Source of the DNA: an uncultured Solirubrobacterales bacterium
Lineage (GTDB): Bacteria; Actinomycetota; Thermoleophilia; Solirubrobacterales; Solirubrobacteraceae
NCBI GenBank assembly: GCA_963724305.1
Contig: CAVRUG010000004.1
Coordinates: 1,437,640-1,501,639 of the forward strand
Reading direction: 5' to 3'
Length of the DNA: 64,000 nucleotides
Of this stretch, positions 22,986 through 38,345 are shown piece by piece. A model generated the notes under the pieces. It was given only the letters and a program-made list of their open reading frames with translations, was not told where the DNA came from and did no database searches. Both the position numbers and the translations under genes were made by a program. Numbering within the stretch: the first letter of the stretch is position 1; each line of letters starts with the position of its first letter.

Positions 22986-24038
22986 TCAACACGAGTGTCG
23001 TTCGAGGCCGTCATGTGTGATCTTCCACGTGCCGCTGTAGTCGGTGAGTCTGTAGTAGCCGGTCCACGTGTAGCAACCTGTCTTCCTCGCCACCGTCTGT
23101 AGCGAGCCAACGTCTACCGTGGCTTCGTTCCCTTCGAGCGAGCCCGGTTCGAAGCTGTAGGAGACGCGCTCCACGCCTTCCTTTTCCTCGGCCTGCACCC
23201 ATTCAGATTCGCTGGACCCAGCGCTCGGTTCCTCGATCTGATAAGCCCCGGAGAAGTCGTGGTCTTCGATGTCGCTCCAATAGCTGTCCATTGCGGCGAC
23301 CGCGTGAGCCTCCCGTTCGCTCGGCGATGGCCCAGCCTGCGTTGCGGGCTGCGCAGCAGGTGTAACGGGTGGGGCGGGCGTAGAAGTGTGTGTGGTTGTA
23401 GAAGGCGTGTGGGTTGTTGCGGTTGGCGCGGGCGCGGCGGGCACCGTCTTTTCCACCGTCCTTTCCTTCACCGTGACCGTCGGCGCGTTGTGGTTCTTCG
23501 ATGAGGAGCTGAGCGCGACCGCTGCGCCGGCGCCGAGCAGCGCGACGACGATCGCTCCGATGACGATCGCGCCCGTCGGGTAGCGCCGGCTCGCCGGCGG
23601 CGGAGGCTTCTGCGGTGGTTGCGGCGGTGGCGGCACAGTCGCTGCGGTGGCTGGTTGGGTCGGGGTCGCTGGTGTGAGAACGTGTGTGGCGGTGGTGTTG
23701 GCGGGGCCGTTGACGCAGCCGGTGACGCTGCAGCCTGCGTTGTCCTGCCAGCACTCGTGGTGGTGAACGGTCCCGCAAGCGCCACAGGTCTCGATCGGGG
23801 CGCCCTCCTTCAGCGGGAAGCGGCAGTAGGGACAGACGCGTCCGGTCAGCTCAGGGCCAGCGTTCTGACCGGTCCCCGCGAAGGACGGAGAGCTCGTCCC
23901 GGGTTGAGACGGGAGCGGCGACCACCCGACGTCGCCGGTTTGCTGATGGGCCTGGACGGGGTTGCAGGCGACGCATACGCCCAGCGCGTTGAGCGGGCGG
24001 CCGCAGGCGGTGCAACGGGTATTTGGTTCGGCTGCCAT
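22986..24038 (-). CDS. Zn-ribbon + prokaryotic RING + TM + extracellular (NTF2-like?) domain protein (RING-1)
   Basis: CTAC...CVAC, then CPYC-x12-CGAC-x4-H-x2-CW-x5-C-x4-C, Pro-rich linker, TM (AIVIGAIVVALLGAGAAVAL), Thr/Pro stalk and a C-terminal domain ending WKIT. Confidence 0.85.
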   Translation of the reverse strand: MAAEPNTRCTACGRPLNALGVCVACNPVQAHQQTGDVGWSPLPSQPGTSSPSFAGTGQNAGPELTGRVCPYCRFPLKEGAPIETCGACGTVHHHECWQDNAGCSVTGCVNGPANTTATHVLTPATPTQPATAATVPPPPQPPQKPPPPASRRYPTGAIVIGAIVVALLGAGAAVALSSSSKNHNAPTVTVKERTVEKTVPAAPAPTATTHTPSTTTHTSTPAPPVTPAAQPATQAGPSPSEREAHAVAAMDSYWSDIEDHDFSGAYQIEEPSAGSSESEWVQAEEKEGVERVSYSFEPGSLEGNEATVDVGSLQTVARKTGCYTWTGYYRLTDYSGTWKITHDGLERHSC

Positions 24039-24199: not shown

Positions 24200-25213
24200 T
24201 CATGCACAGCCCAGAGCGTGCCGGACCGGGTGGAGGACCCGATGCAGCCAGGTTGCGGTGCGTGTGATCATTTCGATGCCGACGTCGAACGACGACCCCC
24301 CCGGGGGTGGGTGGGCGATGATTGCGACAGCGGTGGCGTTGGCCGTGCCGGGGTCAACAATGCCGGATTGTCTCACGAGGTAGGCTTCGCCTTCCGGCCC
24401 CCACCCGCCCTTGAAGGCGACATGAGCGAAATCGGCCGATCCGAGTCCCCAGCTCTCCGACGGGACGATCTGCTGCATCAAGCTCAAGATGTGCTGCGTG
24501 TGTCGAGGGGGGAGCAGGCAGCCGGCGTCGAGGGCGCTGAAGAACAGCACGGCGCTGCCCGGGGCCCACTCGGTTTGGCCGAACGTGGTGACGGCGCCTG
24601 GCGGCGGGGGTTGGGTTGCAACGACGGTGGCGCGGTCGCCGCTGCGCTGCAACTCCCCTTCAACGGCTTCACTCGCCCCCGCGAGACCCCCCTCGATTGC
24701 TTCCAAGTCGTGAAAGAGGCTGAGGATCGCTTCGTTGCTCGATTCGGTGATCGCCAGTCTGGTCTCTTCCTGCTCTTGGTAGCTGAGTTGGTGCGGTTCG
24801 AGCGCCGTCATGAGAGCCGCGATCACGGGGATCTTCATCGTGCTCCAACCGTGAGCCGCCTCGTCTAGTCCGAAGAGCTTTGGTTTGCCCGCGCCGACGG
24901 GCATCACCGCAACCTCGACGGGGCCCGGGAGCTCGCGCTGCAGCGCGGCGAACGTAACGTCGGCTTCGGGGGCAAGCTCCGTGACCGCTTCGGCCGGGGG
25001 CGCCGGCGCGACTCCCGGCGCTATCGCCGATCGTCGGGCTGTTGCGGTTGTCGGGCTGCTCTCCAGGCCCGTCGTCGTGGTGGTGCGAGCGGCGCCGTTC
25101 GCGGGGTTGCTCACGAAACGTTGCACGATGATCCCGACCGTGAGGCCGCCGAGGAACAGGAGCCCCACGATGAGCAGCACGTTCGTGCGATGGCTTGCGG
25201 GCCGCGGTCTCAC
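24200..25213 (-). CDS. Membrane-anchored serine hydrolase, beta-lactamase/PBP fold
   Basis: SxxK (WSTMK), SxN (ESSNE) and K-G-G-W-G motifs; N-terminal TM; GTG start overlaps the ABC gene stop. Confidence 0.82.
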   Translation of the reverse strand: MRPRPASHRTNVLLIVGLLFLGGLTVGIIVQRFVSNPANGAARTTTTTGLESSPTTATARRSAIAPGVAPAPPAEAVTELAPEADVTFAALQRELPGPVEVAVMPVGAGKPKLFGLDEAAHGWSTMKIPVIAALMTALEPHQLSYQEQEETRLAITESSNEAILSLFHDLEAIEGGLAGASEAVEGELQRSGDRATVVATQPPPPGAVTTFGQTEWAPGSAVLFFSALDAGCLLPPRHTQHILSLMQQIVPSESWGLGSADFAHVAFKGGWGPEGEAYLVRQSGIVDPGTANATAVAIIAHPPPGGSSFDVGIEMITRTATWLHRVLHPVRHALGCA

Positions 25214-27567
25214 TGCGCGGGTCTGGCGAGCATGTGAATGATGCCCGCTACGAGGATCGTGGCGAAGACGGCGCAGATGAGAGCGAAGTCGATGATCGTC
25301 ACGGAGAAGAAGGCGTGGCCATAGTGGTTGATGTGGGAGTAGACGCGGTCTTCGTCGATGCGCTGCTGCATGTTCACGACGTGCCCGGCGGTCGCAAAGC
25401 CCCACCGCGACGGCACGAGCGCAGAGAAGACTTTGACGATCGGCTGCATTTCCTGGTACTGCACGAGCGCGCCACCGAAGAGCAGCTGGGGGACGAGCAG
25501 CAGGGGGATGATCGCCGTGGCTTGGTCCTCAGACGTCGAGACGGCTGAGACCAGGAGACCTAGGAGGGTGGCGATCGAGCCGACCATCACCAAGACCGCG
25601 ACGAAGGCCAGCACCGTCAGGGGTGGTTCGTGCAGGGGACGGAGGACGAGGAGGATCAGCGCGAACAACGTAATCTGTACGGCTGCGAAGGCGAGGAGGA
25701 CGACGAGCTTCGAGGCAAGGTAGGCGGGCAGGCGAACGCCGATCGCGAGCTCCCGATTGAGCACGTTGCGCTCCTTCACGATCTCGCGCGCGGCGTTGAT
25801 CGAGCCGAGCCAGATTGCGATCGTCACCATCAGGAAGACGAGCTGGGCGGACTTGCCCGACCCGTTTGGTTGCGGCGGTGTCACGAAAATCGTGGAGGCG
25901 AAGAGGATCGCCGTGAAGACGCCGAGCACGGGGACCTGGATCAGGGCACTACGGATGTGTTTCCGGTCGCGTAGCACGAGGAGCGCGTAGCGACTCGCAA
26001 GGATCTTCGTCTGGTAGCCGAGCGACTGGCGGACGCGCGGCGGTGTTTGCGGAGCGTCGCGACGAACCGGCGGCAGGGATCGTACGGCCGCCGGCGTCGG
26101 GTGGTTGGGGGCGAGCCGTTCGAGCGCGGAGTAAACGTCGTCGTAGTGGTCAACGCCGAAGGTGGTGAGGAGCTCCCCGGGTGGACCATCGAAGCGCATG
26201 TGACCACCCCGGCCCATGACGATCACGCGATCGTATTGGTGCATACTCCCCGTGGCGTGGGTAACGAGCGCGACGGTTTGGCCGGCGTTGGCGAGCTGAC
26301 GGAAGAGCTCGGTCATGTGGTGCTCGAGCCCGGGGTCGAGTCCCGTGGTGGGCTCGTCGAGGAACAGCGCGCCCGGCCGGTGCAGGAGCTCAACCCCCAC
26401 GGCAACGCGCTTGCGCTGCCCGCCGGAGAGACGACTGACGCGGATGTCGGCACGATCGGCGAGCCCAAGCTCAGCGATCACCTCGTGGACTCGTTCGAGG
26501 CGCTCATGCTCGGCGGTGTCCGGCGGCAGACGCAGGCGAGCAGCGAAGTCGAGCGCCTCCGTGACCGTCAGCTCGTCGTGGACGATGTCGAACTGGGGCA
26601 CGTAGCCGATCTCCGACTGGCGAAGCATCACCGCTTCCCCACCGACGAGCACACTGCCGCCGGTAGGGGCGGAAACACCCGCGAGTGCCTTCAGGAGGGT
26701 ACTCTTGCCGGCACCGGACTCGCCGATGATCGCGACGAGCTCGCCGGCGCGCAGCTGCAGGTCGGTGGGCTGCAGGATCGTCCCGCTCTCCACGTCGACG
26801 CGGACGCCGCTTGCCGCGATCGCAAGACCGGCAGCGACCGCCCGCTCGAACAGCTCCAAGCCGTCGAAGAGGATCCGGTACGGGCCGATCGCGATCTGGT
26901 CGCCGACGTGCAACCGAGTCCTCCGTACGGGTGCGCCGTTGACGCGCACCCCGACGGCGCTGCCGAGGTCGGTGATCGTAGTGGCGGTGCCGTCGGAGTT
27001 GAGGACGGCGTGGTGGAGGGAGATCGTCGGGTGGTCGAGCACGAGGTCACACGCAGGGTCACGACCGATCGTGAATCCGCGCTTGGTTGCGCGGAGTCGC
27101 CCGGCGTCGACCGGCTTGACGGGCGCGAGGCGCGGGAGCCCGTGGCCGGTCGGAAGGTAGTAGAAGCTCGTACCGCCAAGCGCGATCGCGTCACCCCGGC
27201 GGAGCGTGCGGCGCTCCCCGGAGACGAGCAGTTCTCCATTCACGTACGTGGCAGCACGCCCGCCGCGCTCGACGAGCGCGTGACCGTTGTCGGTCGGCTC
27301 GATCGCCGCTTGGATCGGCGCCACGTTGGCGACGCGCACCGTCGCGCTCTCGGCGGCGCCGATCGTGAGGCCGTCGTGAGGGATGGTGAGGCGGCGCTCG
27401 CCGCAGAGCAGCGCCGCGGATTGCAGCGCGACCTCGAGCTCGTCCTCGAAGCCGATAACGAGCGGCCGCGGCGGGGCTCCGGGCAGCGTCTCGAGGTCGA
27501 TCGATGCCTCGCTAGTCGGCCCGGGTGAGCGGATCTTGACTAGCTCGTCATCGGGATTGTCAACCAT
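25210..27567 (-). CDS. FHA-FHA-ABC ATPase-ABC2 permease fusion (Rv1747-like exporter)
   Basis: FTIGRDPACD...TISLHHA FHA; GESGAGKST, LSGGQRKR, FLDEPTTGLD; REIVKER permease motif. Confidence 0.92.
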   Translation of the reverse strand: MVDNPDDELVKIRSPGPTSEASIDLETLPGAPPRPLVIGFEDELEVALQSAALLCGERRLTIPHDGLTIGAAESATVRVANVAPIQAAIEPTDNGHALVERGGRAATYVNGELLVSGERRTLRRGDAIALGGTSFYYLPTGHGLPRLAPVKPVDAGRLRATKRGFTIGRDPACDLVLDHPTISLHHAVLNSDGTATTITDLGSAVGVRVNGAPVRRTRLHVGDQIAIGPYRILFDGLELFERAVAAGLAIAASGVRVDVESGTILQPTDLQLRAGELVAIIGESGAGKSTLLKALAGVSAPTGGSVLVGGEAVMLRQSEIGYVPQFDIVHDELTVTEALDFAARLRLPPDTAEHERLERVHEVIAELGLADRADIRVSRLSGGQRKRVAVGVELLHRPGALFLDEPTTGLDPGLEHHMTELFRQLANAGQTVALVTHATGSMHQYDRVIVMGRGGHMRFDGPPGELLTTFGVDHYDDVYSALERLAPNHPTPAAVRSLPPVRRDAPQTPPRVRQSLGYQTKILASRYALLVLRDRKHIRSALIQVPVLGVFTAILFASTIFVTPPQPNGSGKSAQLVFLMVTIAIWLGSINAAREIVKERNVLNRELAIGVRLPAYLASKLVVLLAFAAVQITLFALILLVLRPLHEPPLTVLAFVAVLVMVGSIATLLGLLVSAVSTSEDQATAIIPLLLVPQLLFGGALVQYQEMQPIVKVFSALVPSRWGFATAGHVVNMQQRIDEDRVYSHINHYGHAFFSVTIIDFALICAVFATILVAGIIHMLARPAQ

Positions 27568-27684
27568 ATCCCCCCCATTCTTGCCTTCCACATCGCCTAA
27601 TCGTATAAGCTGTCGCCGCTATTCAGCCAAGGCCGGTCAGCGCGGGTACCTCCCGTTCATTCGGCCCGAACCAGGAGTTGGGGG

Positions 27685-28326
27685 ATGGACCCGCGTCTGC
27701 GCAGGCTCCAATCGGACTACGAACTCGTGCGGGAGGTGTTCTCGGGGCATCCGCATGTCGCCGTGGAAGCGCTCGGCACGCGGCTGCCGCCGGAGAACTA
27801 CCGTGTCGAGTACCGCCTGCGCGGGCTTTACTTGAACGGTGATCAACCGGCCTACCGGGACGTTCACCACATCGAGGTGATGTTGCCGCGTCGCTACCCC
27901 GCGGAGAAGCCGTACGTGGTGCCGCTTGAGCCGATCTTCCACCCGAACATTCGCGACTATTTCTGCATCGCGGATTACTGGGCGGCCGGGACGACCCTCG
28001 CCGACGTGATCGTGAAGCTCGGCGACATGATCCAATGGCGCGTCTACAACACCGCGAGCCCACTAGACGCAATCGCTGCGCGTTGGGCCGCTGAACAGGA
28101 GTACTCGGGGATCTTCCCGATCGGCAACGTGGATCTCGGCGTTGCCGACTTCGAAATCGCGATCCGCTCGCGCGCGCTCGAGCAACCGATCCCGGCGCCC
28201 GAGACAGCGCCTGCGCTTGCTCCGGTCGCCACTGTGGACGAGGTGGAAGCCGAGCCACCTCCGGCGACCCTCACTGCAAACGACGATGACGATGGCCTCG
28301 TCGTGATGCTGCGCTCGCGCGGGTGA
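27685..28326 (+). CDS. Ubiquitin-conjugating enzyme E2 (UBC fold), copy A
   Basis: RLRRLQSD N-terminal helix, YPAEKP, PIFHPNIRDYFCIAD (HPN plus catalytic Cys), SPLDAIAA; acidic/Pro tail; GGAG RBS. Confidence 0.9.
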   Translation: MDPRLRRLQSDYELVREVFSGHPHVAVEALGTRLPPENYRVEYRLRGLYLNGDQPAYRDVHHIEVMLPRRYPAEKPYVVPLEPIFHPNIRDYFCIADYWAAGTTLADVIVKLGDMIQWRVYNTASPLDAIAARWAAEQEYSGIFPIGNVDLGVADFEIAIRSRALEQPIPAPETAPALAPVATVDEVEAEPPPATLTANDDDDGLVVMLRSRG

Positions 28327-28344: not shown

Positions 28345-29502
28345 ATGACCGACAAGAGAAGGATCGTTCTCGGTGAGGAGGACTTCCTCGAAGCGGAGCC
28401 ACCGAGCTCGGCGCCAGCGCCCCCGGTTGCCAGCGCCGCGCCGCCAACACGACCCCTGAGGCCGCCCGCGCCGGACCTCCCGACGGTCACGCGTGGCGTT
28501 CCACGCCGAGTCGACCCCAGCGAACCGGGATTTGCGGCCTCGCCCGGCGGGGCGCCTACGAGCGCGCCGACCTGGATGACGGCGCCGCAAACCGCCCACC
28601 TCGTCGCCGCCGCGGTCGGAATCGTCGGAGGCTGGGCCGTCACTGAAATCACCGGCATCGCGAGCATCGCGGCGCAATCGAGCCTCGGCCTCGACGCAAC
28701 GGCGGGCCTCTGGGTCGGTGTCGTCGGGCTCTTCTTCGGCGGCACGGTACTTGCGTACGACAGCGCGATCGGGGGCGCGTGGGCGGCGGCTCGGAGCCGC
28801 TTCGCGAAAGCGGCGCTGCCGATGTTTGGCGCCTCGTTCGCCGCCGGGTTCCTTGCGCAGGTCGTCTACGGCGAAATCATCAAAGCGATTCTCGAAGAAG
28901 TGTTGCGGGGACAGACAACGGTCGGCGCCAACGACGTGCGCCTGTACCTCGCCCGCGCGCTCGGCTGGGCGTTGTTCGGCATCGGCATCGGCGTCTCCGT
29001 CGGACTACTGCGAAAATCGAACCGCCTGGCGGTCAACGGCGGGATCGGAGGCGCGATCGGTGGAGCTATCGGCGGCGTGATCTTCGAGTACGTGGCCTTC
29101 AACGTCGGGCTCAGCGGAGCCTTGACGCGGCTCGTGGGGCTCACCGCGGTAGGCAGTCTGATCGCAGTCGCGACGCGCGTCGTTGAAACCGCGCGCCGGC
29201 AAGCCTGGCTGCACATCACCGCAGGCGGAATGGCCGGCAAGGAGTTCATCATCTACCACGACGTCACGCGGATCGGCGCCTCGGCGGAGTGCGAGATCTT
29301 CCTCTTGAAGGACCCGGCGGTCGCGAAGCTGCACGCCCAGATCGACGACCGGGATGAGCGCAGGCTGCTCACGGCAATGCCTAACGCGCCCGTCTACGTG
29401 AACGCGCAGCCCGTCCAATCCCACGTCCTGCGCAACGGAGACAAGCTGCGAATAGGAAGCACAACTATTGCGTATTCCGAGCGTGCGGAGGCGGCCGCGT
29501 AG
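28345..29502 (+). CDS. Multi-TM protein with C-terminal FHA domain
   Basis: Pro-rich N-terminus, several Gly-rich TM segments, then GKEFII...RIGASAECEIFLLKDPAVAKLHAQI...VYVN...LRNGDKLRIG. Confidence 0.85.
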   Translation: MTDKRRIVLGEEDFLEAEPPSSAPAPPVASAAPPTRPLRPPAPDLPTVTRGVPRRVDPSEPGFAASPGGAPTSAPTWMTAPQTAHLVAAAVGIVGGWAVTEITGIASIAAQSSLGLDATAGLWVGVVGLFFGGTVLAYDSAIGGAWAAARSRFAKAALPMFGASFAAGFLAQVVYGEIIKAILEEVLRGQTTVGANDVRLYLARALGWALFGIGIGVSVGLLRKSNRLAVNGGIGGAIGGAIGGVIFEYVAFNVGLSGALTRLVGLTAVGSLIAVATRVVETARRQAWLHITAGGMAGKEFIIYHDVTRIGASAECEIFLLKDPAVAKLHAQIDDRDERRLLTAMPNAPVYVNAQPVQSHVLRNGDKLRIGSTTIAYSERAEAAA

Positions 29503-29586
29503 GTTCAACAACGGCGGAGGACGCCCCTCCCTATTGTTCAATATGTAGTGACACAACACACTACTTGTAACCAAAACGGAGGCGAC

Positions 29587-29850
29587 ATGGACCTGACAAT
29601 CGTGGACGCGACTGGCAACAAGGCCGAGGAGGTGAGCGTTCCCGACACCGTCGCCAGCGGTCGCATCGTCGGCCGGCTCGTCCAGTTGCTGCAGCTCCCC
29701 GCGGTGGGGCCGGACGGGCAGCCGCTGTCCTACAAGTTCCACCACAAGCAGTCCGGGCGCCAGATCAACGACAATGAGACCCTCGGCGACGCTGGCGTGA
29801 AAGAAAACGACGTGCTGCGCCTGGTGGCTGAAATCACGGCGGGCGCTTAG
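29587..29850 (+). CDS. Ubiquitin-like beta-grasp protein (EsaB/YukD-like), 87 aa
   Basis: ETLGDAGVKENDVLRLV matches the Ub/YukD TLxDxGIxxGDxLxL pattern; ends EITAG-A; GGAGG RBS; directly upstream of E1. Confidence 0.9.
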   Translation: MDLTIVDATGNKAEEVSVPDTVASGRIVGRLVQLLQLPAVGPDGQPLSYKFHHKQSGRQINDNETLGDAGVKENDVLRLVAEITAGA

Positions 29851-29860
29851 CTCTGCGCAC

Positions 29861-31069
29861 ATGCCGGCGAGCCATGACAGCAAGCGCATCCGAGTCGACG
29901 CCGAGGACGGGCGCTACGACCGCCAGAGCCTGATCACCTGGTGGGACCAGGCGCGGCTGCAGGATGCTCGCGTGCTGGTGGTTGGTGCGGGCGCGCTCGG
30001 GAACGAGATCGTGAAGAATCTCGTGCTCGTCGGCATCGGCACGGTGATCGTTGTCGACCTGGACAGAGTCGAGAGCTCGAACCTCTCGCGCTGCGTGTTT
30101 TTCCGTGCCGAGGACGAGGGGCGCCCGAAGGCGAGGGCGTTGGCGGAGCGCGCCGCGGAGCTGAACCCCAACGTCGAGGTCATCCCGGTCGTCGGCGACG
30201 TCCGGCTCGCGATCGGGCTCGCCGCGTTCGCCGAGGTCAACGTGGTGATCGGCGGACTCGACAATCGCGAAGCGCGCCTGTTCGTCAACCAGGCCTGTTG
30301 GAAGACGACCACGCCGTGGATCGACGGCGCGATCGAGGGCCTGATGGGTGTCGCCAAGGTCTTCATCCCGCCGGATACAGCGTGTTACGAGTGCACGCTC
30401 GGCGAGCGCGACCACGAGTTGCTCGCGGCACGCCGGACCTGCGCGATGCTTAGCCGCGAGGAGATGTTGGCGGGCAAGACGCCGACAACGGCGACCACGT
30501 CGAGCGTGGTTGCGGCGCTGCAGGCGCAAGAGGCGATCAAGCTGCTGCACGCAGATCGCCTCGGAGAACCGGCGCTCGCCGGCAATGGCTACCAGTTTGT
30601 CGGCCTCACGCACGAGTCCTACGTTGTCCGTTACGGCCGCCGGGAGGACTGCTTGAGCCACGATACCTACGCGCGCGACGCCGTCACCGTCGTCGCCCAC
30701 GACGTCGTGTTCGGCGAACTCCTCGCGCTGGCCCGGGAGACGCTCGGCGCGCAGGCGGTGCTCGAGCTCGAGCACGAGCTCGTCGTTAGCGCGTCGTGTC
30801 AGCGGTGCGACATCGCCGAGGAGCTGCTGTGTCCGGTCAACACGCTCGACGCCGGTGCCGGTCTGTGCCCCCGTTGTGGCGAGCCGTGGAGGCTTGAGTT
30901 CGCGCACACGATCGACTGGGCGTCCCCGCTGCTGGAGCGCACAGCGGAGGACCTCGGACTGCCGCCCGGCGACTACGTCGTGGCACGCGAGGGATTTCGT
31001 CGCCGCTTCTATTCGCTCTCGGCGCCCGGAACGGCGCTTGACCTCCTCCGCAGGAAGTCCGTGGCGTGA
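29861..31069 (+). CDS. E1 / ThiF-family Ubl-activating enzyme with C-terminal Zn domain
   Basis: RYDRQ, VVGAGALGNE, DLDRVESSNLSR, GLDNREAR, CYECTL followed by candidate catalytic RRTC, CLSH, and extra CQRC/CPRC. Confidence 0.93.
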   Translation: MPASHDSKRIRVDAEDGRYDRQSLITWWDQARLQDARVLVVGAGALGNEIVKNLVLVGIGTVIVVDLDRVESSNLSRCVFFRAEDEGRPKARALAERAAELNPNVEVIPVVGDVRLAIGLAAFAEVNVVIGGLDNREARLFVNQACWKTTTPWIDGAIEGLMGVAKVFIPPDTACYECTLGERDHELLAARRTCAMLSREEMLAGKTPTTATTSSVVAALQAQEAIKLLHADRLGEPALAGNGYQFVGLTHESYVVRYGRREDCLSHDTYARDAVTVVAHDVVFGELLALARETLGAQAVLELEHELVVSASCQRCDIAEELLCPVNTLDAGAGLCPRCGEPWRLEFAHTIDWASPLLERTAEDLGLPPGDYVVAREGFRRRFYSLSAPGTALDLLRRKSVA

Positions 31070-31938
31070 GCGCGCGACTGGGACGCGTCCCCGTCCAAGC
31101 GGCCGCCGTTCTCGTCGCGGTTGTCGCCCTCGTCGCGATGCTGACGCCGAACGCGGCGTTGGCGGTGCCCTCCCGCATCCTCTCCGCCGCGGAGCACAGC
31201 GTTGCTGCGGCGCAGGGCCCGAACGGAACGACGACCGCGTTTGCGTTCGGCGCCGAAGGCGGCCTGATCGCCGTCGCCACGAGCGGCAAATCGGTCCACG
31301 CCGTGACGAGCAACGGGGGCACAATCAACGGCGATGTGGGAACCGCCCGCGACGGCCTCGGCGTCGCCCACGTCTCGGGGTTGGCGCTACGCCCTCTGCC
31401 AGCCAGCCGCGCGCGAACTGTCTCAGGTCGGACGGCGAAGTACGTGCTCGGTCCTCCCCTCGGCTACGAAGCCGCACGAATCCGGTATGTGCGTACACCC
31501 AGGCTGCCATTGACGCGACTGGGCTTGAGAGTCATTCCCGGCTCCCTGCCGGGCAGCTTCCTCGGCGCGCCGGTGGTCACCGGGCACGGCGCACTGATCG
31601 GCGCCGTTGCCAAAGTGGGTACGCGGAGCTGGGAGTTTGCGCCGCTGGCACTGCTGCGGGAGCTGGCCGCCGTCAAGCACGGAGCATCGACGCCGGTGGC
31701 AGCGATCATCGTTGGGGGGGTGATCGTGTTCCTCCTGGGCGCCGCGTTCGGGATTTGGCGCGTGAGGCATCGCCGCGATCGCGAGCAGGATCTTCATGCT
31801 CGTCAGCGCCGCGCACACGCGACGGAGCCACGCGCTCATGGTCCGCTCGTGCGCTTGCGCACGCCGCCAGAGCCCGAACAGGAATTGGACGCGGAGGACT
31901 TCGAGGTGATCGTGAAGCCGCGGGGGGAGGAAGCGTGA
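31066..31938 (+). CDS. Signal peptide + degenerate trypsin-like domain + TM + cytoplasmic tail
   Basis: GSFLGAPVVTGHGALIGAV aligns with trypsin GNSGGPL...GELIGI but lacks the catalytic Ser; TM AAIIVGGVIVFLLGAAFGIW followed by a basic stretch. Confidence 0.6.
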   Translation: MSARLGRVPVQAAAVLVAVVALVAMLTPNAALAVPSRILSAAEHSVAAAQGPNGTTTAFAFGAEGGLIAVATSGKSVHAVTSNGGTINGDVGTARDGLGVAHVSGLALRPLPASRARTVSGRTAKYVLGPPLGYEAARIRYVRTPRLPLTRLGLRVIPGSLPGSFLGAPVVTGHGALIGAVAKVGTRSWEFAPLALLRELAAVKHGASTPVAAIIVGGVIVFLLGAAFGIWRVRHRRDREQDLHARQRRAHATEPRAHGPLVRLRTPPEPEQELDAEDFEVIVKPRGEEA

Positions 31939-32444
31939 GTCCTCGCGATCGTCGTTTGGCGAGCGATCTGCGGCAGATGCAAGAGCTTGCATCCACGGGC
32001 GGCGTGACCTTCCGGACGGAGAGCAACCCACCTGACCTCTACCACGTGATGTTGGACGAGCAGGGTATCGCGCTCGATTCGAATGGACGACTGGTGCGCC
32101 GCGGTCTGCACCGTTTCGACGCCTACCTGCACCGCGAGTATCCGCGGAGGCCGCCGATCGTCACGTGGTTGACGCCGATCTTCCACCCCAACATTCTCGG
32201 CCCCGAGCGCAACGGGGGGGTGTGTATCGGCAGCTGGAGCGCAGCTGAGAGCCTGGCTGATCTTTGCGTGCGGCTTCGCTCGCTCGTCGCCTACCGCTCG
32301 CTGAACCCTGCGGACGCGCTGAACCGCGAAGCCGGGGAATGGGCGACGCGGCATCACGTCCGCCCCGGCGCGCCGCTCGCGCAGCTCGTGTCTCTAGAGC
32401 TCGATCGGGGATTCGATGTCGCGCTGACGGGGGCGTCGGGATGA
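31935..32444 (+). CDS. Ubiquitin-conjugating enzyme E2 (UBC fold), copy B
   Basis: RDRRLASD, YPRRPP, PIFHPNILGPERNGGVCIGSW, NPADALNREA; GTG start coupled to the previous stop (GTGA) with GGAGG RBS. Hidden inside ORF-track entry 30855..32444. Confidence 0.9.
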   Translation: MSPRDRRLASDLRQMQELASTGGVTFRTESNPPDLYHVMLDEQGIALDSNGRLVRRGLHRFDAYLHREYPRRPPIVTWLTPIFHPNILGPERNGGVCIGSWSAAESLADLCVRLRSLVAYRSLNPADALNREAGEWATRHHVRPGAPLAQLVSLELDRGFDVALTGASG

Positions 32445-33205
32445 GCGTCCGGTTGAAGTCCGCCGCGGGAGGAACGAGGCGCCGCGTACGACGCGGCGAG
32501 GACGGTCCCGAGATCGCCGGGCTGAGAGGCGTGAGCGACGTCACGATCTACCCCCACGTCTTCCGCAATGCGGATCGGGAGGTGGGAGGAGTGCTCATCG
32601 GTCGGCAGTCCGGCGAAGGTGGTTTGCCGCTTGTGACGGGGGCAATCCCCGCGCTCAGCGCGAACGAGCAGAAGGCAACGCTGACGTTCACGCAGGAGGC
32701 TTGGGCGCACGTGCATCAGGTGCTCGAATCGGAGTTTCCCGCCGACGAACAGATCGTCGGCTGGTATCACAGCCATCCGAGTTTCGGCATTTTCCTCTCC
32801 GGGCACGACCTCTTCATCCACGAAAACTTCTTCGACGCGCCGTCGCAGATCGCGGTCGTCGTCGACCCGATCGGCTGCCGCGAGGGCGCGTTCGGGTGGC
32901 GGGAGGGCAAGCTCGTGCCACTTTACGAGCAGGCGACGCCGACGCGTTGGCGAGCGCCCGCCGAGTTGCAGCGTCCCCCTCAGCCTCGCGTCGATGAGAC
33001 CCGCATCGTCGTGGCCGCCGACCGCGCAAGGTTGTCCTCGGCGCGGCTGCTCGCGCTCGTGGCCTTGGTGTCTTGCGTGCTCGTCGTGATCGCCCTGCTC
33101 CTTGTCACGGGCATCCTCGGCGGGTCCGCTAAGAGCGGCGGCGCAGAACACAGCCCGCCGCAACGGCTGCACACGGTGGACACCAACCGGCGGGCACATC
33201 CATGA
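32441..33205 (+). CDS. JAB/MPN+ (JAMM) metallopeptidase with C-terminal TM anchor
   Basis: EVGGVLIG...GWYHSHPSFGIFLSGHD (E...HxHx7Sx2D intact); TM LLALVALVSCVLVVIALLLVTGIL. Confidence 0.93.
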   Translation: MSVRLKSAAGGTRRRVRRGEDGPEIAGLRGVSDVTIYPHVFRNADREVGGVLIGRQSGEGGLPLVTGAIPALSANEQKATLTFTQEAWAHVHQVLESEFPADEQIVGWYHSHPSFGIFLSGHDLFIHENFFDAPSQIAVVVDPIGCREGAFGWREGKLVPLYEQATPTRWRAPAELQRPPQPRVDETRIVVAADRARLSSARLLALVALVSCVLVVIALLLVTGILGGSAKSGGAEHSPPQRLHTVDTNRRAHP

Positions 33206-34080
33206 CGGCGAGGGCCGCAACCCCGACCGACGTGGGCAAGCCGTGCCCGTACTGCCGCTTCCCCTTGAAGGAAGGCGTGCCCGTTGAGGTCTGCGACACG
33301 TGCGGTTCGATCCACCACGCGGAGTGCTGGACCGATGGCAGCGGTTGCGCAGTCTTTGGCTGCCTGGCCGCGGGCGCGGCGATCGCCGCGCCGACAGCCG
33401 CTCCGGGCATAGCGGCGCAAGCTTACGCAGCGCCAACACCGTATCCACAAGCGCTCCCTGCGCCGGATGCTGTGCCAGGAGCCCCGCCGCCACCACCCGC
33501 GCCACCGCTGTCCTACCCGCCGCCGAGCCCCGGGATGCGACCGTTGACGATCGCGTTGGCGGCGGTCGTCGCGCTGATCGGCATCGGCGCCGGGGTCGCC
33601 GTGGCGAGCGGTGCGTTCGGGTCAGGCAACCACCACGCCGTGACGGTTGTAACCGTGCACCAACCGGTGGGGGGCGGCGGCGCGGCAAGGATGACGCCGG
33701 CAGAAGAACAGCAGAAGCGGGGCGCAATCGTCGGGGTGCTGGACGAATACCAGCGTGACTACTCAAGCCACAGCGTATCCGGGCTCGGCAACATATTCGC
33801 GGAAAAAATCAAACGCCACGGCCTCTCGGGATCGGGGTGCAGCGTCGTCGAAGGGCGCCAGCCGGTGTTGGAAGATTACGAACAGCAGTTCAATGCTGGC
33901 ACCGGCACGTACACCCTGGTGGGATTGGGCGCCAACCAGGTGCAACTGCATGGCCCGAGTACGGCGGAAGTGCATTCGCACTATGAAATCTCGCCGGGCG
34001 GATCGGGATTCGTCAACTTCAAGCTCGCGGCGAACGGGAGTGAATGGAAGATCAGTGAAGTCTATGCAACCTGCGCGTGA
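33202..34080 (+). CDS. Prokaryotic RING + TM + extracellular NTF2/SnoaL-like domain protein (RING-2)
   Basis: CPYC-x12-CDTC-x4-H-x2-CW-x5-C-x4-C; Pro-rich linker; TM; C-terminal domain ending EWKISEVYATCA; ATGA-coupled to JAB. Confidence 0.87.
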   Translation: MTARAATPTDVGKPCPYCRFPLKEGVPVEVCDTCGSIHHAECWTDGSGCAVFGCLAAGAAIAAPTAAPGIAAQAYAAPTPYPQALPAPDAVPGAPPPPPAPPLSYPPPSPGMRPLTIALAAVVALIGIGAGVAVASGAFGSGNHHAVTVVTVHQPVGGGGAARMTPAEEQQKRGAIVGVLDEYQRDYSSHSVSGLGNIFAEKIKRHGLSGSGCSVVEGRQPVLEDYEQQFNAGTGTYTLVGLGANQVQLHGPSTAEVHSHYEISPGGSGFVNFKLAANGSEWKISEVYATCA

Positions 34081-34100: not shown

Positions 34101-34733
34101 ATGCCCGATGAGCTGCCCGGAGTGAACCGGCCGAGCCGGATCGTGATCGATGAGTCCGACCTCGCGCCGGCCGCGCCTGCACCACCCAACCCTGCTCCCC
34201 CCGCTCAGCGGCACGCGCCCGTTCCGGCTCCCGCAGCTCCGCCGCGGCCCGTGCCGCCGTCGTCTCCCGCAGTTGCGGGCACGGCCACAACGGGCCAGGC
34301 ACCAAAGCCGGCGCCGCCGGCGCAACACAAGCCGCCCATGCTCGGCAGCTACTGCTCGGGGTGCGGAGCGCCGCTGCATGAGCAAGCGGTCGTGTGTCTG
34401 CGTTGCGGGGTGCCCACCCGCGGAGCCGCGCAAGCGACGACAGCCGCAATGGGCGTAGCGATGAACTCGAAGTCGACCGCCGCGGCGATCCTGCTCTCGC
34501 TCTTGTTCACCGGGGCCGGCCACTGGTACGTCGGCCGGGTTGGGCGCGGCTTCGCGTTCCTCGCTGCGGCCGTGGTCTCGGGGATCCTGGTGATCGCCGT
34601 TGTCGGGCTCTTCCTGCTTCCCGTCGTTTGGGCATGGGCTGCGATCGATGCGAACAATTGCGCGCGCAAGCACAATGTGGAGCTCCTGCGCCAAGCTGGC
34701 TTCCCCGGCATGCCGCCGACACTCAATGCGTAA
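34101..34733 (+). CDS. Zinc-ribbon + TM2-domain membrane protein
   Basis: CSGCG...CLRCG; KSTAAAILLSLLFTGAGHWYVG TM2 signature; AAGGA RBS. Confidence 0.82.
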   Translation: MPDELPGVNRPSRIVIDESDLAPAAPAPPNPAPPAQRHAPVPAPAAPPRPVPPSSPAVAGTATTGQAPKPAPPAQHKPPMLGSYCSGCGAPLHEQAVVCLRCGVPTRGAAQATTAAMGVAMNSKSTAAAILLSLLFTGAGHWYVGRVGRGFAFLAAAVVSGILVIAVVGLFLLPVVWAWAAIDANNCARKHNVELLRQAGFPGMPPTLNA

Positions 34734-36072
34734 CCCAATCGAGGCCGGGTGGACGGGTGGGTCGTTCGAGACCCGGTGCAGACCCAGGACAAAACGCCGC
34801 CAACCGGCACGGCGGATGGCTGGCATCGCCGTCGGGGTTGCGTGTGTGCTCGGCGTGGCTGCGTGTGGTGGCTCCGGCGACGCGAGCTCGACGGGACGGA
34901 CGATCACGATCACGAGGACGGTGACGCGATCGACCAAGACCGCGAAACCGCTTGCGTCGAAGACAGTGTCGAAGGCAACGCCAAAGCGAAGCGGGGCGAG
35001 CACCGTGCCGGTGGACGCAATGCTGGGCCAAATGATCGTCACCGCCTTCTCGGGCAGCTCGCCGCCGGGCGCGTTGCTCGATCGAATCAGAGCGGGCCAG
35101 GTGGGTGGTGTGATCTTGTTCTCAGAAAACACCGCGGGCGGCGAAGTATCGACGCGCACCGAGGTCGCACAGCTGCAGGCCGCGGCGAGTGCCGGGGGTC
35201 GGCCACCGCTGCTAATCATGACCGACCAGGAGGGCGGCGAGGTGAAGCGGCTCACGTGGGCGCCGCCGTTGCACGCCGCCCAGGAAATGCGTTCCGCCGC
35301 GCTGGCGGAGGCGGAAGGGGAGGCGGCGGGGAGGGCGCTGCGCGCCGTCGGTGTGAACCTCGACCTCGCGCCGGTTGCCGACGTCGAGCGCGTCGCGAAC
35401 TCGTTCCTCGGCACGCGCTCCTTCGGCGACGAATCGCTCGAGGTTGCCGAGCGTGCGTGTGCATTCGCAGAAGGGCTCGCGAGCGCAGGAGTCGGGTTCA
35501 CGCTCAAGCACTTCCCGGGCCTCGGACGGGCCCTCGGGGATACAGACCTGGAACCGGTCACGATCAGCGCCTCAGCCGCGGAGCTTCGCGAGGACTATGA
35601 GGCATACGTGAACTGTGCGTCAAATCCTAATGGCGTGGTGATGGTCAGCAACGGGACCTATCCGTCGCTTACCGGCACCTCGCTGCCAGCGGTGATGTCC
35701 CCCGAGATCTACAAAACCGAGCTCGGCGAGATCGTCGGCTACTACGGCGTCACGATCAGCGACGCTCTCGGGGCGCGCGCTCTCGCGCACGAGCCCGCCG
35801 CGGCTGAGAGCGCGATCAACGCGGGCCTCGACTTGGCGCTCTACGCCGGGACCGAAGAAGAATCGGCCGACGCCTACGCAACCCTCCAAGAAGATATGCG
35901 AGCGGGCGATATCCCGCGTAATCGCGTCGAAGAAGCCTACAACGCGATCGTCGCGCTGAAGACCAAGATCGCCGGGGCGGCGCCGCAGACAACCGCGAAC
36001 GACTCGCAGTCATCGTCCTACTCCGAAAACGCTGGGGCACCCGCAACGATCAGTCCCGGAAAAGGGAAGTGA
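34726..36072 (+). CDS. GH3 NagZ-like beta-N-acetylhexosaminidase, lipoprotein (start uncertain: 34726 or 34816)
   Basis: Lipobox VAAC; GQMIV, GGVILFSEN, DQEGGEVKRL, NLDLAPVAD, RSFG, KHFPGLG, ISDAL. Confidence 0.88.
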   Translation: MRNPIEAGWTGGSFETRCRPRTKRRQPARRMAGIAVGVACVLGVAACGGSGDASSTGRTITITRTVTRSTKTAKPLASKTVSKATPKRSGASTVPVDAMLGQMIVTAFSGSSPPGALLDRIRAGQVGGVILFSENTAGGEVSTRTEVAQLQAAASAGGRPPLLIMTDQEGGEVKRLTWAPPLHAAQEMRSAALAEAEGEAAGRALRAVGVNLDLAPVADVERVANSFLGTRSFGDESLEVAERACAFAEGLASAGVGFTLKHFPGLGRALGDTDLEPVTISASAAELREDYEAYVNCASNPNGVVMVSNGTYPSLTGTSLPAVMSPEIYKTELGEIVGYYGVTISDALGARALAHEPAAAESAINAGLDLALYAGTEEESADAYATLQEDMRAGDIPRNRVEEAYNAIVALKTKIAGAAPQTTANDSQSSSYSENAGAPATISPGKGK

Positions 36073-37301
36073 GAGCAATAACCAAGCATCGGCCCTGGGC
36101 GGTAGTGGGATGCGTGGCGGTGATTGCAGGCTTGGGCGTGTCGGTGGGCATTGCGATCGCCGACACGGGCGCCGAAACTGGTGGAACCGCCGCACCTGAA
36201 GGTACCGTTGAAGGCACCCAGCCGATCGCAACGACCACTGCGAGCTCCACCGCGGCGACGCCCGTCGTCAGCCCACCCACCCGAGCCCCAGCTGCGGGAA
36301 AGCTGACGCTTGGTCAGGCCGTCGGGCAGATGCTGATCAGCCACGTCACCGGTCTGAGCGCATCATCGGCGCTCCTGAAGAGGATTCGCGCAGGCCAGGT
36401 CGGAAGCGTGATCCTCTACTCCGAAAACATCTCGACCATCAGCCAACTCACCGCGCTGACCGCGGCACTGCAGGGCGCAGCCCGCGACGGACACAACCCG
36501 CCGCTGTTCATCGGCACCGACCAAGAGGGCGGCCCGGTGAAGCGACTGGCGGACGCACCCCCGTGGCTGTCAGCCGCACAGATGGGCGCCACCCGCCACG
36601 TGAAGTCCGTCGCCCAAGCCGAAGGCCGCGCGGCCGGCCGAGCACTTCTCAAGGCCGGCGTCAACCTCGACTTCGCCCCGGTCGCGGACATCCCGACAAG
36701 CGCCGACAACTTCCTCGGCGAACGGGCCTTCGGCGAGAAAGCACGAACCGTCGAAGAAGGCGTCACAGGCTTCGCCACCGGCCTTGAGGAAGCTCATATC
36801 GCCGGCAGCGTCAAGCACTTCCCGGGCCTGGGCGGAGCCGGACCACGCGACACCGACACCGAAGTGGTGACGATCGACTTGTCCGAGTCGCAGTTGAGAT
36901 CGGCGTGGGCGCCGTACCGCGCTGTTGCCAAACTCGGGGCGATGATCGCGCCCTTCGTGATGGTGTCGAACGCCATCTACCCAGCACTCAACCACTCGCA
37001 GCTCCCCGCCGACCTGTCATCGACTGTCGTCCGCAACGAGCTCGCTAGCACGGGCCTCGGGAACCGGGTCACGGTCACCGACGACCTCGAGGTGCCGGCG
37101 ATTGAGCGCTACTCGGATGCTGCAGTAAAAGCCGTACGTGCCGGCATTGATCTCCTGATGTTCGCGCAGGAAGAAGCCGCGTCGGAACGCGCGTTCGACG
37201 AGATCGTGGCCGCTGTGAAGACGGGAGCCCTCACAAGCACCGATGTGATTGCCGCCGCAGATCGCGTCGTCGCGTTGAAGTCCGCACTCGGCCTAGGCTG
37301 A
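36069..37301 (+). CDS. Second GH3 NagZ-like glycosidase, exported/anchored
   Basis: N-terminal hydrophobic segment; DQEGGPVKRL, NLDFAPVAD, KHFPGLG, VTDDL; GTGA-coupled to the first GH3. Confidence 0.88.
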   Translation: MRAITKHRPWAVVGCVAVIAGLGVSVGIAIADTGAETGGTAAPEGTVEGTQPIATTTASSTAATPVVSPPTRAPAAGKLTLGQAVGQMLISHVTGLSASSALLKRIRAGQVGSVILYSENISTISQLTALTAALQGAARDGHNPPLFIGTDQEGGPVKRLADAPPWLSAAQMGATRHVKSVAQAEGRAAGRALLKAGVNLDFAPVADIPTSADNFLGERAFGEKARTVEEGVTGFATGLEEAHIAGSVKHFPGLGGAGPRDTDTEVVTIDLSESQLRSAWAPYRAVAKLGAMIAPFVMVSNAIYPALNHSQLPADLSSTVVRNELASTGLGNRVTVTDDLEVPAIERYSDAAVKAVRAGIDLLMFAQEEAASERAFDEIVAAVKTGALTSTDVIAAADRVVALKSALGLG

Positions 37302-37397: not shown

Positions 37398-38345
37398 TCA
37401 TTCGCATTCCGATGTGAACGAGTTGGCCACCGCACGAAACGTCGGCCGTATCGCATCGAAGCTTGAGGGGGTCGCGGAGCCAAGCACGGCCACGGTGTTG
37501 CTGCAGGTCTCGAAGAAGTAGTCAATCCGCTCGTTGCCTTCGACTTCGAAGATCCACATCCACGATTCGGAATGCCGAGACAAGTCTCCGGGACCGTAAT
37601 AGATCTGGGTGTAGCCAGGCTGCTTCGCGAGCTCTTCACGCACTGGTTCGGCACCTTCGCGCATCGTTATATGAGTTGGTGTGTGCACGTCAAGCAAGAC
37701 ATATTCACTTGAGCCGGATGGATTGGACCACTTCGATTCAACTTCTGCTCCCAACTGCTTTTCATCGACATCCTGGACCCAGCCCGAGGGGATCATCATG
37801 GAGAAGTAGGAACCCGAGTAGGACCGCAGACTTGACGTGCTCGGAGTCTCCGGCTGAGACGAGGTGCCGCTCGGGAGTTCCTTCGGAGAGGTCGTCAACG
37901 TAGTCCGAGCGGAGTTCGCGTTGGACGCATCCGTCTTCACCAGCTCGGTCGTCGTCGAGCCATGACTGTTGTTTTTGCCGATCACGAATGCGAGCGTGAC
38001 GCCCAGGACGAGAATCGCGAGCAGTGAGACGAAGAGCGCCCCGTTACGCGAGCGGTCGCGGGGTTGGCGGCCGGTGGGCGCGTGGCCGAGCGCAGACTGG
38101 CTGCTGGGGGGCGTCAGCGGGACCGATGGAGCCTGCATCCGCTGCGTCTGCGGCTCCGAAGGTCGAACGCTGGTTGAGCCCGGTCCGCTTGCGCAGGCGA
38201 TGATCGCACAGCCGTGGTTGTCAGTCCAGCACTCCGCGTGGTGCGGAGAGTTGCAGGTCGGGCAGATCGTGACGTCGCCGTCCTCCTTGATTGGGAAGCG
38301 ACAATACGGGCAGTGCCGTCCGGCTATGACAGGGGATGCTTTCAA
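37398..38345 (-). CDS. Prokaryotic RING + TM + extracellular PsbP/DcrB-like domain protein (RING-3)
   Basis: CPYC-x12-CPTC-x4-H-x2-CW-x5-C-x4-C; TM ALFVSLLAILVLGVTLAFVIG; FSMMIPSGW...FRAVANSF is typical of the PsbP-like fold. TTG start uncertain. Confidence 0.83.
   Translation of the reverse strand: MKASPVIAGRHCPYCRFPIKEDGDVTICPTCNSPHHAECWTDNHGCAIIACASGPGSTSVRPSEPQTQRMQAPSVPLTPPSSQSALGHAPTGRQPRDRSRNGALFVSLLAILVLGVTLAFVIGKNNSHGSTTTELVKTDASNANSARTTLTTSPKELPSGTSSQPETPSTSSLRSYSGSYFSMMIPSGWVQDVDEKQLGAEVESKWSNPSGSSEYVLLDVHTPTHITMREGAEPVREELAKQPGYTQIYYGPGDLSRHSESWMWIFEVEGNERIDYFFETCSNTVAVLGSATPSSFDAIRPTFRAVANSFTSECE

Follow-up and report, generated by a model that had tools for sequence, protein, structure and literature searches.

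The window, meaning the whole 64,000-nucleotide stretch of contig CAVRUG010000004.1 analyzed here, carries an operon that encodes a small ubiquitin-like protein (Ubl) together with an E1, two E2s, a JAB/JAMM peptidase, and a RING-finger membrane protein. The plus-strand order is E2 (27685), TM-FHA (28345), Ubl, E1 (29861), two-TM protein (31066), E2, JAB, RING-TM (33202), Zn-ribbon-TM2 (34101), and two GH3 genes, with 4-nt stop/start overlaps joining the E1 through RING genes. The features are as follows.

22986–24038, minus strand: second Prok-RING_1-TM protein, candidate E3
24200–25405, minus strand: beta-lactamase-like protein
25210–27591, minus strand: FHA-FHA-ABC transporter, divergently transcribed, found beside many homologous operons
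27685–28326, plus strand: E2 (UQ_con) no. 1, HPN...Cys94; at 25.6 bits it falls slightly short of the Pfam cut-off of 27
28345–29502, plus strand: hydrophobic, probably membrane protein with a C-terminal FHA domain (TM-FHA) and the conserved N-terminal SIM-like motif RIVLGEEDF (28360–28386)
29578–29582, plus strand: GGAGG ribosome-binding site in the sequence, supporting the ATG at 29587
29587–29850, plus strand: ubiquitin-fold modifier (Ubl; Pfam YukD), 87 aa, ending EITAG-A (translation, Pfam, alignment, model)
29842–29847, plus strand: Gly86, conserved and aligned with ubiquitin Gly76, and Ala87, a variable one-residue tail (sequence, homologue alignments)
29861–31069, plus strand: E1 (ThiF/UBA-like), 402 aa, with a CYEC Zn pair and putative catalytic Cys194 (Pfam, conservation)
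31066–31938, plus strand: two-TM protein, translationally coupled between the E1 and E2 no. 2
31935–32444, plus strand: E2 (UQ_con) no. 2, HPN...Cys97; its stop codon overlaps the JAB start
32441–33205, plus strand: Rpn11-like JAB/JAMM peptidase, 254 aa, with E47, H110, H112, S120, and D123 (motif, Pfam, fold)
33050–33106, plus strand: predicted TM helix of the JAB (residues 204–222), N-in by the positive-inside rule (hydropathy, model)
33202–34080, plus strand: Prok-RING_1, Pro linker, TM, and NTF2-like C-terminal domain; candidate E3
34101–34733, plus strand: membrane protein with Zn-ribbon and TM2-like parts; SIM-like motif at the N-terminus
within 34600–37301, plus strand: two GH3 glycosidase genes
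37398–38345, minus strand: third Prok-RING_1-TM protein, candidate E3

The Ubl gene ends exactly as the original prediction read it, with its last Gly masked by a single Ala: the C-terminus is ...LRLVAEITAGA, with codons GGC (29842–29844), GCT (29845–29847), and the stop TAG (29848–29850). A longer frame from GTG 29548 (100 aa) was dropped because GGAGG precedes the ATG at 29587 and most close homologues are 84–95 aa long. Assembly error does not account for the single Ala, since four other records—L001, L002, L004, and L037, of which the first two are near-identical—also end in Gly-Ala-stop; it is on these other assemblies that we discount a sequencing error at the stop codon. Run X1 has a contig that shows no difference over 29818–30000, but it begins fewer than 31 bases before the codon in question and may come from the source sample, so it was not counted.

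The protein scores 34.6 bits against Pfam YukD (PF08817; cut-off 27), and the Pfam ubiquitin match falls below its cut-off. We modeled the structure with AlphaFold2 (pLDDT 92.6) from a 30-row alignment whose rows were hand-picked by us from standalone-sized matches. The folds closest to the model are NEDD8, Caldiarchaeum subterraneum ubiquitin (rank third), and ubiquitin, and T7SS YukD is absent among the structural matches listed, to rank 50.

The conjugation enzymes have the expected residues. The E1 scores 183 bits against Pfam ThiF and matches UBA7/UBA1 better than ThiF/MoeB. A residue equivalent to Cys194 is present in 46 of 47 E1 loci, and position together with conservation points to it as the catalytic Cys. 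The E1 of L013 has DYES in place of the CYEC zinc pair and retains the downstream Cys. Prok-RING_1 (PF14446) gives three matches above cut-off, all inside the window's island. Neither the Ubl, the E1, nor either E2 has a membrane helix, the single borderline E1 stretch sitting in a soluble domain.

Several accessory proteins have features of their own. The 31066–31938 two-TM protein has no Pfam, NCBIfam, or PADLOC match; a 6-row profile gave a weak DegP-like match (E 0.064), which together with a G-x-F-L-G-A-P-V motif suggests a catalytically dead trypsin-like ectodomain. The FHA domain of 28345–29502 reads IGAS and VAKLH at the consensus GR and SxxH positions, which we take to be the phosphothreonine-binding Arg and Ser; both are thus seemingly missing there, and the second FHA domain of the ABC protein (25210–27591) keeps GR and SxxH. 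The two GH3 genes, the beta-lactamase-like gene, and the FHA-ABC transporter gene accompany the operon in many loci despite changes in gene order, and their traveling together hints at a cell-wall link. In a promoter/terminator scan, the two promoter-like sites fell on the minus strand and the terminators were at about the level of shuffled sequence; neither result was usable.

The JAB shows both of the properties first read from it, an intact JAMM motif and, by prediction, a C-terminal TM helix. Its active-site pattern is E47 and H110-S-H112-x7-S120-x2-D123, it scores 43.4 bits against Pfam JAB (cut-off 22.5), and among solved structures C. subterraneum Rpn11 (6FJU/6FJV/6FNN) is closest to it in both sequence and fold. 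Residues 204–222 have a mean Kyte-Doolittle hydropathy of 3.34, and in the structure model residues 200–227 form a helix separate from the catalytic domain. Both properties recur among 119 JAB homologues, with the JAMM motif in 119/119 and a TM-like stretch in 112/119. Lys and Arg are commoner before than after the helix in 71 of these homologues, with the reverse in 12, an excess that indicates a cytoplasmic catalytic domain.

Exceptions to this architecture occur at several loci. JABs of L011, L013, L020, and L046, all accompanied by a tail-less Ubl, have no TM helix, which shows that some lineages can do without the anchor. A second JAB, soluble and with an intact JAMM motif, is encoded in L010 (18847–19287) and L019 (13011–13448), and a second JAB in L015 (5554–5814) bears a TM helix without a JAMM motif.

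The masked Gly is conserved and its mask is not. A search returned 455 Ubl homologues; of the best 120 of these 455, 119 keep [ED]ITAG, so the check named beforehand, that homologues conserve the terminal Gly, came out in favor of the original prediction. Judged from sequence, this conservation is far beyond chance, and A85 and G86 are invariant in the 30-row alignment down to 40% identity. Within the same best 120 of 455, 77 have the Gly as their last residue and 42 run on for another 1–37 aa, in tails that vary in both length and sequence, and exactly one Ala occurs in 1/120, the query's own cluster.

For comparisons of whole loci we used 56 rows: the window, L001–L025, L034, L035, and L037–L064. 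L026–L033 and L036 were left out as weak matches or short loci, and some near-duplicates were retained. The E1 gene follows the Ubl gene in 52 of the 56 rows, the misses being three short contigs and one Gly-less fusion. In the 53 loci with a readable Ubl C-terminus, 29 are tail-less and 24 tailed. On a quick 47-row E1 tree with many open forks, tail state changes at least six times. The window's clade comprises 11 rows (SH-aLRT 98), all tailed and nested among mostly tail-less relatives; its Ubls are 85–98% identical, and their tails read A, T, R, AHC, AER, ARL, and a 20-mer. Farther out, the motif occurs in 116 of 149 distant representatives, of which 18 end on it and 98 continue past it; cluster representatives may be biased toward long sequences. 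With 98 of 116 extended, processing may matter more family-wide than in the window's clade.

The tails that do exist look like substrates. Across the 42 tails in the best 120 of 455 homologues, the residue after the Gly (+1) is A in 24, S in 8, G in 5, T in 2, N in 2, and R in 1. The set A/S/G/T/N, which was chosen post hoc, thus fills +1 in 41/42 tails and +2 in 15/41, against a six-frame background of 39%, with kin among the 42 tails not independent. Beyond +1 the tails look random. The small +1 bias is weaker elsewhere—18/24 loci and 70/99 distant representatives, where R, L, I, and V occur. Twenty distant homologues extend more than 100 residues past the Gly, into Zn-ribbon-TM, lipoprotein-like, and E2 domains among others, and releasing the tag from such long fusions would take an endopeptidase; the junction residue is A, S, or G in 16 of these 20 long natural fusions. 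The 41/42 bias in the best 120 of 455 fits real trimming, and on this sequence evidence the tails are probably trimmed.

Published systems supply a chemistry for such trimming. In the available text of PMC6043591, C. subterraneum Rpn11 (CsRpn11) performs both precursor processing and deconjugation, and the P1' residue must be small, a steric limit that the +1 bias of the tails matches; Cys79Glu blocks precursor cleavage and Cys79Gly speeds it. The same source reports that Gly77Ala slowed cleavage. With Ala, not Gly, just ahead of Gly86, the window's JAB would, by analogy, have to suit an Ala-Gly end. C. subterraneum pro-ubiquitin is described as resisting E1 until trimmed by Rpn11 (PMC5654768, available portion). 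Ensifer aridi BilC is described as removing the last residue of BilA, Ala98, by a cut after Gly97, type II BilA homologues having up to nine residues after the Gly, and BilC is reported to deconjugate as well (excerpted text of 10.1101/2023.09.26.559546). According to an excerpt of PMC11601596, the JAMM domain of BubCD cuts the BubAB precursor after a conserved Gly. Given the BilA/BilC, C. subterraneum, and BubCD precedents, the idea of a capped precursor was already established. The Ubl itself has the short extension after Gly and the small P1' residue (Ala87) of a JAMM-processed precursor.

We therefore separated the chemistry of trimming from its proposed role. As originally put, the JAB licenses the Ubl by removing the Ala. 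In favor are the invariant Gly, a JAB that travels with the Ubl and is the sole PF01398 match in its own genome (76% complete), the helix common to most JAB homologues, and the parts of PMC5654768 and 10.1101/2023.09.26.559546 that describe, respectively, a tail blocking E1 and JAMM removal of one Ala; against it, the cap is not conserved. By analogy with these systems, the trimming chemistry is likely as proposed. The cap as a conserved licensing step is not supported: most of the best 120 of 455 homologues are tail-less, tail state has changed repeatedly, and the JAB stays intact without a tail. Both tail and JAB are in view at 40 loci, with the JAMM motif in 19/19 tailed and 20/21 tail-less loci, the remaining one cut by a contig end. 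An anchored JAB that is intact where nothing needs trimming makes deconjugation the best explanation of its retention, and deconjugation is probably what the JAB is conserved for, trimming being a side task. The terminal Ala is likely an ordinary optional precursor tail, not a control switch. Because the JAB would trim small tails anyway, tails could come and go freely, hardly constrained except in needing a small +1 residue.

As a model, the original prediction makes the Ala a regulatory cap: the membrane JAB licenses the Ubl nowhere but at the membrane, to which the cycle is then confined. Each of the 11 rows in the window's clade does carry some tail, small side chains are favored at +1, and some distant homologues fuse EITAG through Ala to membrane proteins, where the cut would be at the membrane. 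The JAB TM helix is also present in 18/18 tailed versus 15/19 tail-less loci with a readable JAB end, the four soluble JABs all being in tail-less loci, a lean in the same direction that is not significant (Fisher p = 0.105, related loci included); on these numbers we claim no link between tail and anchor. Yet the many relatives among the best 120 of 455 that stop at the Gly keep the JAB and usually its TM helix, tail sequence and length are free even inside the window's clade, and we found nothing that would gate the JAB. Nor does a local cycle follow from trimming at the membrane, because neither the trimmed Ubl nor the E1 nor either E2 has a membrane helix. We regard a regulatory cap as unlikely; if the cycle is localized at all, the RING-TM proteins and tag removal at the membrane are the more likely cause.

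An exopeptidase can, in principle, act on a one-residue tail. The Ala could then be removed by a general cytoplasmic carboxypeptidase or another protease, leaving the JAB as purely an isopeptidase, in keeping with its retention where there is nothing to trim. Against this, the 3- and 20-residue tails of close relatives and the whole fused domains of distant ones call for an endopeptidase halting at the Gly, and the nearest characterized JAMMs, in the excerpts cited above, perform both jobs. This division of labor seems improbable, and trimming by the JAB remains our preferred reading.

A non-conjugated adaptor resembling T7SS YukD/EsaB, with a Gly-Ala end that has no processing role, is more doubtful still. 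YukD is the best Pfam match, the two share a beta-grasp fold as well as a Pfam family, and some membrane proteins have a Gly-less copy of the domain as their N-terminal module, so the Ubl fold also works non-covalently. T7SS YukD, EsaB, and TsxB are described as having no terminal Gly motif and as not conjugated (available text of PMC11217815), whereas A85-G86 is invariant in the window's Ubl family and an E1 gene follows nearly every copy. T7SS YukD/EsaB genes are said to adjoin genes for ESAT-6/WXG100 and FtsK-type ATPases (PMC1779556, in part). WXG100 had no match in the window's own genome (76% complete) or in 5/5 other carriers, four of them at least 94% complete, and an EccC/EssC FtsK-type ATPase was absent from the 16 ORFs scanned. 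By its Gly motif, the E1 gene behind it, and the missing WXG100 match, the window's Ubl is not a T7SS YukD, and the contrast first drawn with T7SS proteins is therefore beside the point. That the tail is a stop-codon accident and the Ubl dead in this lineage is the least credible account: tails do look random past +1, but the whole 11-row clade is tailed with its closely similar Ubls, and JAMM and E1 sites are intact where in view.

In 2011, Burroughs, Iyer, and Aravind reportedly predicted operons in prokaryotes that combine YukD-like Ubls with E1, E2, and JAB proteins and with RING proteins of the Prok-RING_1 type, and by its defining features we take the window's operon to belong to that class. 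It shares a YukD-fold Ubl ending in Gly, an E1 with its Cys, HPN...C E2s, Prok-RING_1 fingers, and a JAB with an intact JAMM motif, and we found no difference in kind; the extras nearby are the duplication of the E2, three RING-TM genes, the TM-FHA gene, the FHA-ABC transporter gene, and two GH3 genes. An excerpt of PMC7159879 cites the 2011 work for bacterial RING E3 operons. The literature searched, which left most subscription papers outside its coverage, yielded no experimental work on operons of this class or on a bacterial JAMM anchored in the membrane.

Three better-characterized systems resemble the operon in part. Type II BilABCD of E. aridi shares a Ubl with one Ala after a conserved Gly, as seen in the excerpt of 10.1101/2023.09.26.559546; the available text of PMC11601596 gives Bil operons no E3 and an IAD-AAD-CYS E1, whereas the window has RING-TM proteins, two E2s, and a JAB predicted to be membrane-anchored. 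PADLOC left the Ubl and E2s unmatched, placed the JAB only in CBASS-type JAB models, and matched the E1 weakly to BilD (31.6 bits). With no Bil model for the Ubl, E2s, or JAB and three RING genes present, we did not assign the operon to BilABCD. The C. subterraneum CsUb/CsRpn11 pair shares fold matches to both JAB and Ubl and the precedent of a JAMM-trimmed pro-ubiquitin with small P1'. In the parts of PMC6043591 and PMC5654768 available, CsUb ends in Gly-Gly plus a 9-aa tail and CsRpn11 is soluble; the window's Ubl ends in Ala-Gly, and its JAB and RINGs are predicted membrane proteins. The Ala-Gly rather than di-Gly end, and the lack of a PF00227 match in 6/6 carriers, set the operon apart from the archaeal/eukaryotic ubiquitin-proteasome system. 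Bub (6E/DUF6527) shares the JAMM cut after the conserved Gly of a Ubl precursor and differs in its Tyr/Ser oxyesters and DUF6527 (PMC11601596, in excerpt). The window's E1 and both E2s keep Cys, and DUF6527 is absent from the 16 ORFs scanned, which excludes membership in Bub.

In the window's own genome (76% complete), the only matches to YukD, JAB, and Prok-RING_1 are those of the window's island. The nearest relatives are titled Solirubrobacteraceae, and more distant ones lie in Armatimonadota and Planctomycetota. The Ubl was found in 7/301 genomes of the order (5 strong matches) and Prok-RING_1 above cut-off in 4/401 genomes of the class, counts that make the system rare and patchy; this distribution is compatible with anti-phage activity and is not proof of it. 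GC content in the 22–38 kb region (63–69%) is similar to that across the window (63–73%), so there is no clear compositional island. We found no Ubl relative in viral contigs, plasmids, or phages and no tRNA in the window, and with the unremarkable GC we set aside a mobile carrier.

Proteasome components were likewise sought. PF00227 was matched in 0 of 6 carrier genomes and in 10 of 14 control genomes, and no Pup ligase was found in the window's own genome (76% complete), which argues against Pup/proteasome coupling. With no proteasome found in six carriers, the tag is unlikely to feed a 20S proteasome, and a signaling role is likely.

Domain fusions offer hints in the same direction. In P0126, P0154, P0159, P0174, P0197, and P0215, a Gly-less Ubl lies N-terminal to a TM helix and a C-terminal domain, both homologous to those of the 33202–34080 protein (P0159, 43% identity over 188 aa); the C-terminal domain looks NTF2-like (structure atlas scores 0.90–0.91, a lead). 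These six Ubl-TM-ectodomain fusions imply that Ubl and RING are interchangeable N-terminal modules; the Ubl would stand in the RING's place, as if the receptor were permanently tagged. P0155, P0226, and a minus-strand gene from L034:10913 onward also join a Gly-less Ubl to a Pro linker, TM helix, and ectodomain, and nothing within 10 kb of the L034 fusion matched an E1, E2, or JAB.

A second set—P0127, P0131–P0133, P0136–P0139, P0141, P0142, P0151, P0153; P0252, P0259, P0262—keeps EITAG intact and fuses it, mostly via Ala, to Zn-ribbon(-TM), lipoprotein-like proteins, or E2 domains; these are candidate JAB-released precursors. P0244 (1052 aa) combines CHAT, two YukD-like Ubls, and Hint, with the Hint domain beginning right after an ...AG-C junction.

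SIM-like motifs recur on flexible protein ends, combine hydrophobic with acidic residues, and are retained while adjacent linkers diverge. RIVLGEEDF, RIRVDAED, and RIVIDESDL lie at 28360–28386, about 29885–29910 (the E1 N-terminus), and about 34152–34178, respectively, and reversed forms, DDDGLVVML and EDFEVIVK, lie at the C-termini of 27685–28326 and 31066–31938. RIVLGEEDF opens the TM-FHA protein in 21/29 rows that have the gene, four of the misses being cut by contig ends. The pattern, built from these same sequences, occurs in only two places in the whole genome. Binding by the SIM-like motif is putative; together with the Gly-less fusions, it hints at a signaling role.

Together, these observations make it reasonably likely that the Ubl is the tag of a complete E1-E2-RING-JAMM operon, with an optional Ala trimmed by a JAB that is mainly a membrane-protein deconjugase. 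The Ubl would be made as ...EITAG-A, as its gene encodes, and a cytoplasm-facing, membrane-anchored JAB would cut after Gly86, as BilC and CsRpn11 suggest. The E1 would then adenylate Gly86, load it onto Cys194, and hand it to the Cys of either E2; the residues are in place, and the chemistry follows by homology. Receptor-like RING-TM proteins may steer the tag onto lysines of membrane proteins, the operon's own probably among them, and the JAB would strip the tag again at the membrane. Our certainty in these steps falls from JAB trimming, through carriage by the E1 and E2 Cys residues and deconjugation by the JAB at the membrane, to target choice by the RING-TM proteins.

A broader reading is tentative and somewhat doubtful: a proteasome-independent, SUMO-like circuit in which envelope-sensing RING-TM-ectodomain E3s tag membrane proteins, themselves included, SIM-like motifs read the tag, and the JAMM peptidase erases it. 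The Gly-less Ubl-TM-ectodomain fusions would be its permanently tagged receptors.

The one-Ala cap, from which the analysis began, is optional and has an exact published precedent in BilA/BilC; with that Gly-Ala trimming in print and most close relatives tail-less, it is of little importance in itself. The host system matters more: among solved structures its Ubl, E1, and JAMM are nearest to eukaryotic and Caldiarchaeum proteins, in carriers with no detected proteasome. The window's copy offers a compact reconstitution set, with natural tailed and tail-less alleles to compare. If conjugation to membrane proteins were shown, this bacterial RING-E3 pathway would be a reversible membrane signal.
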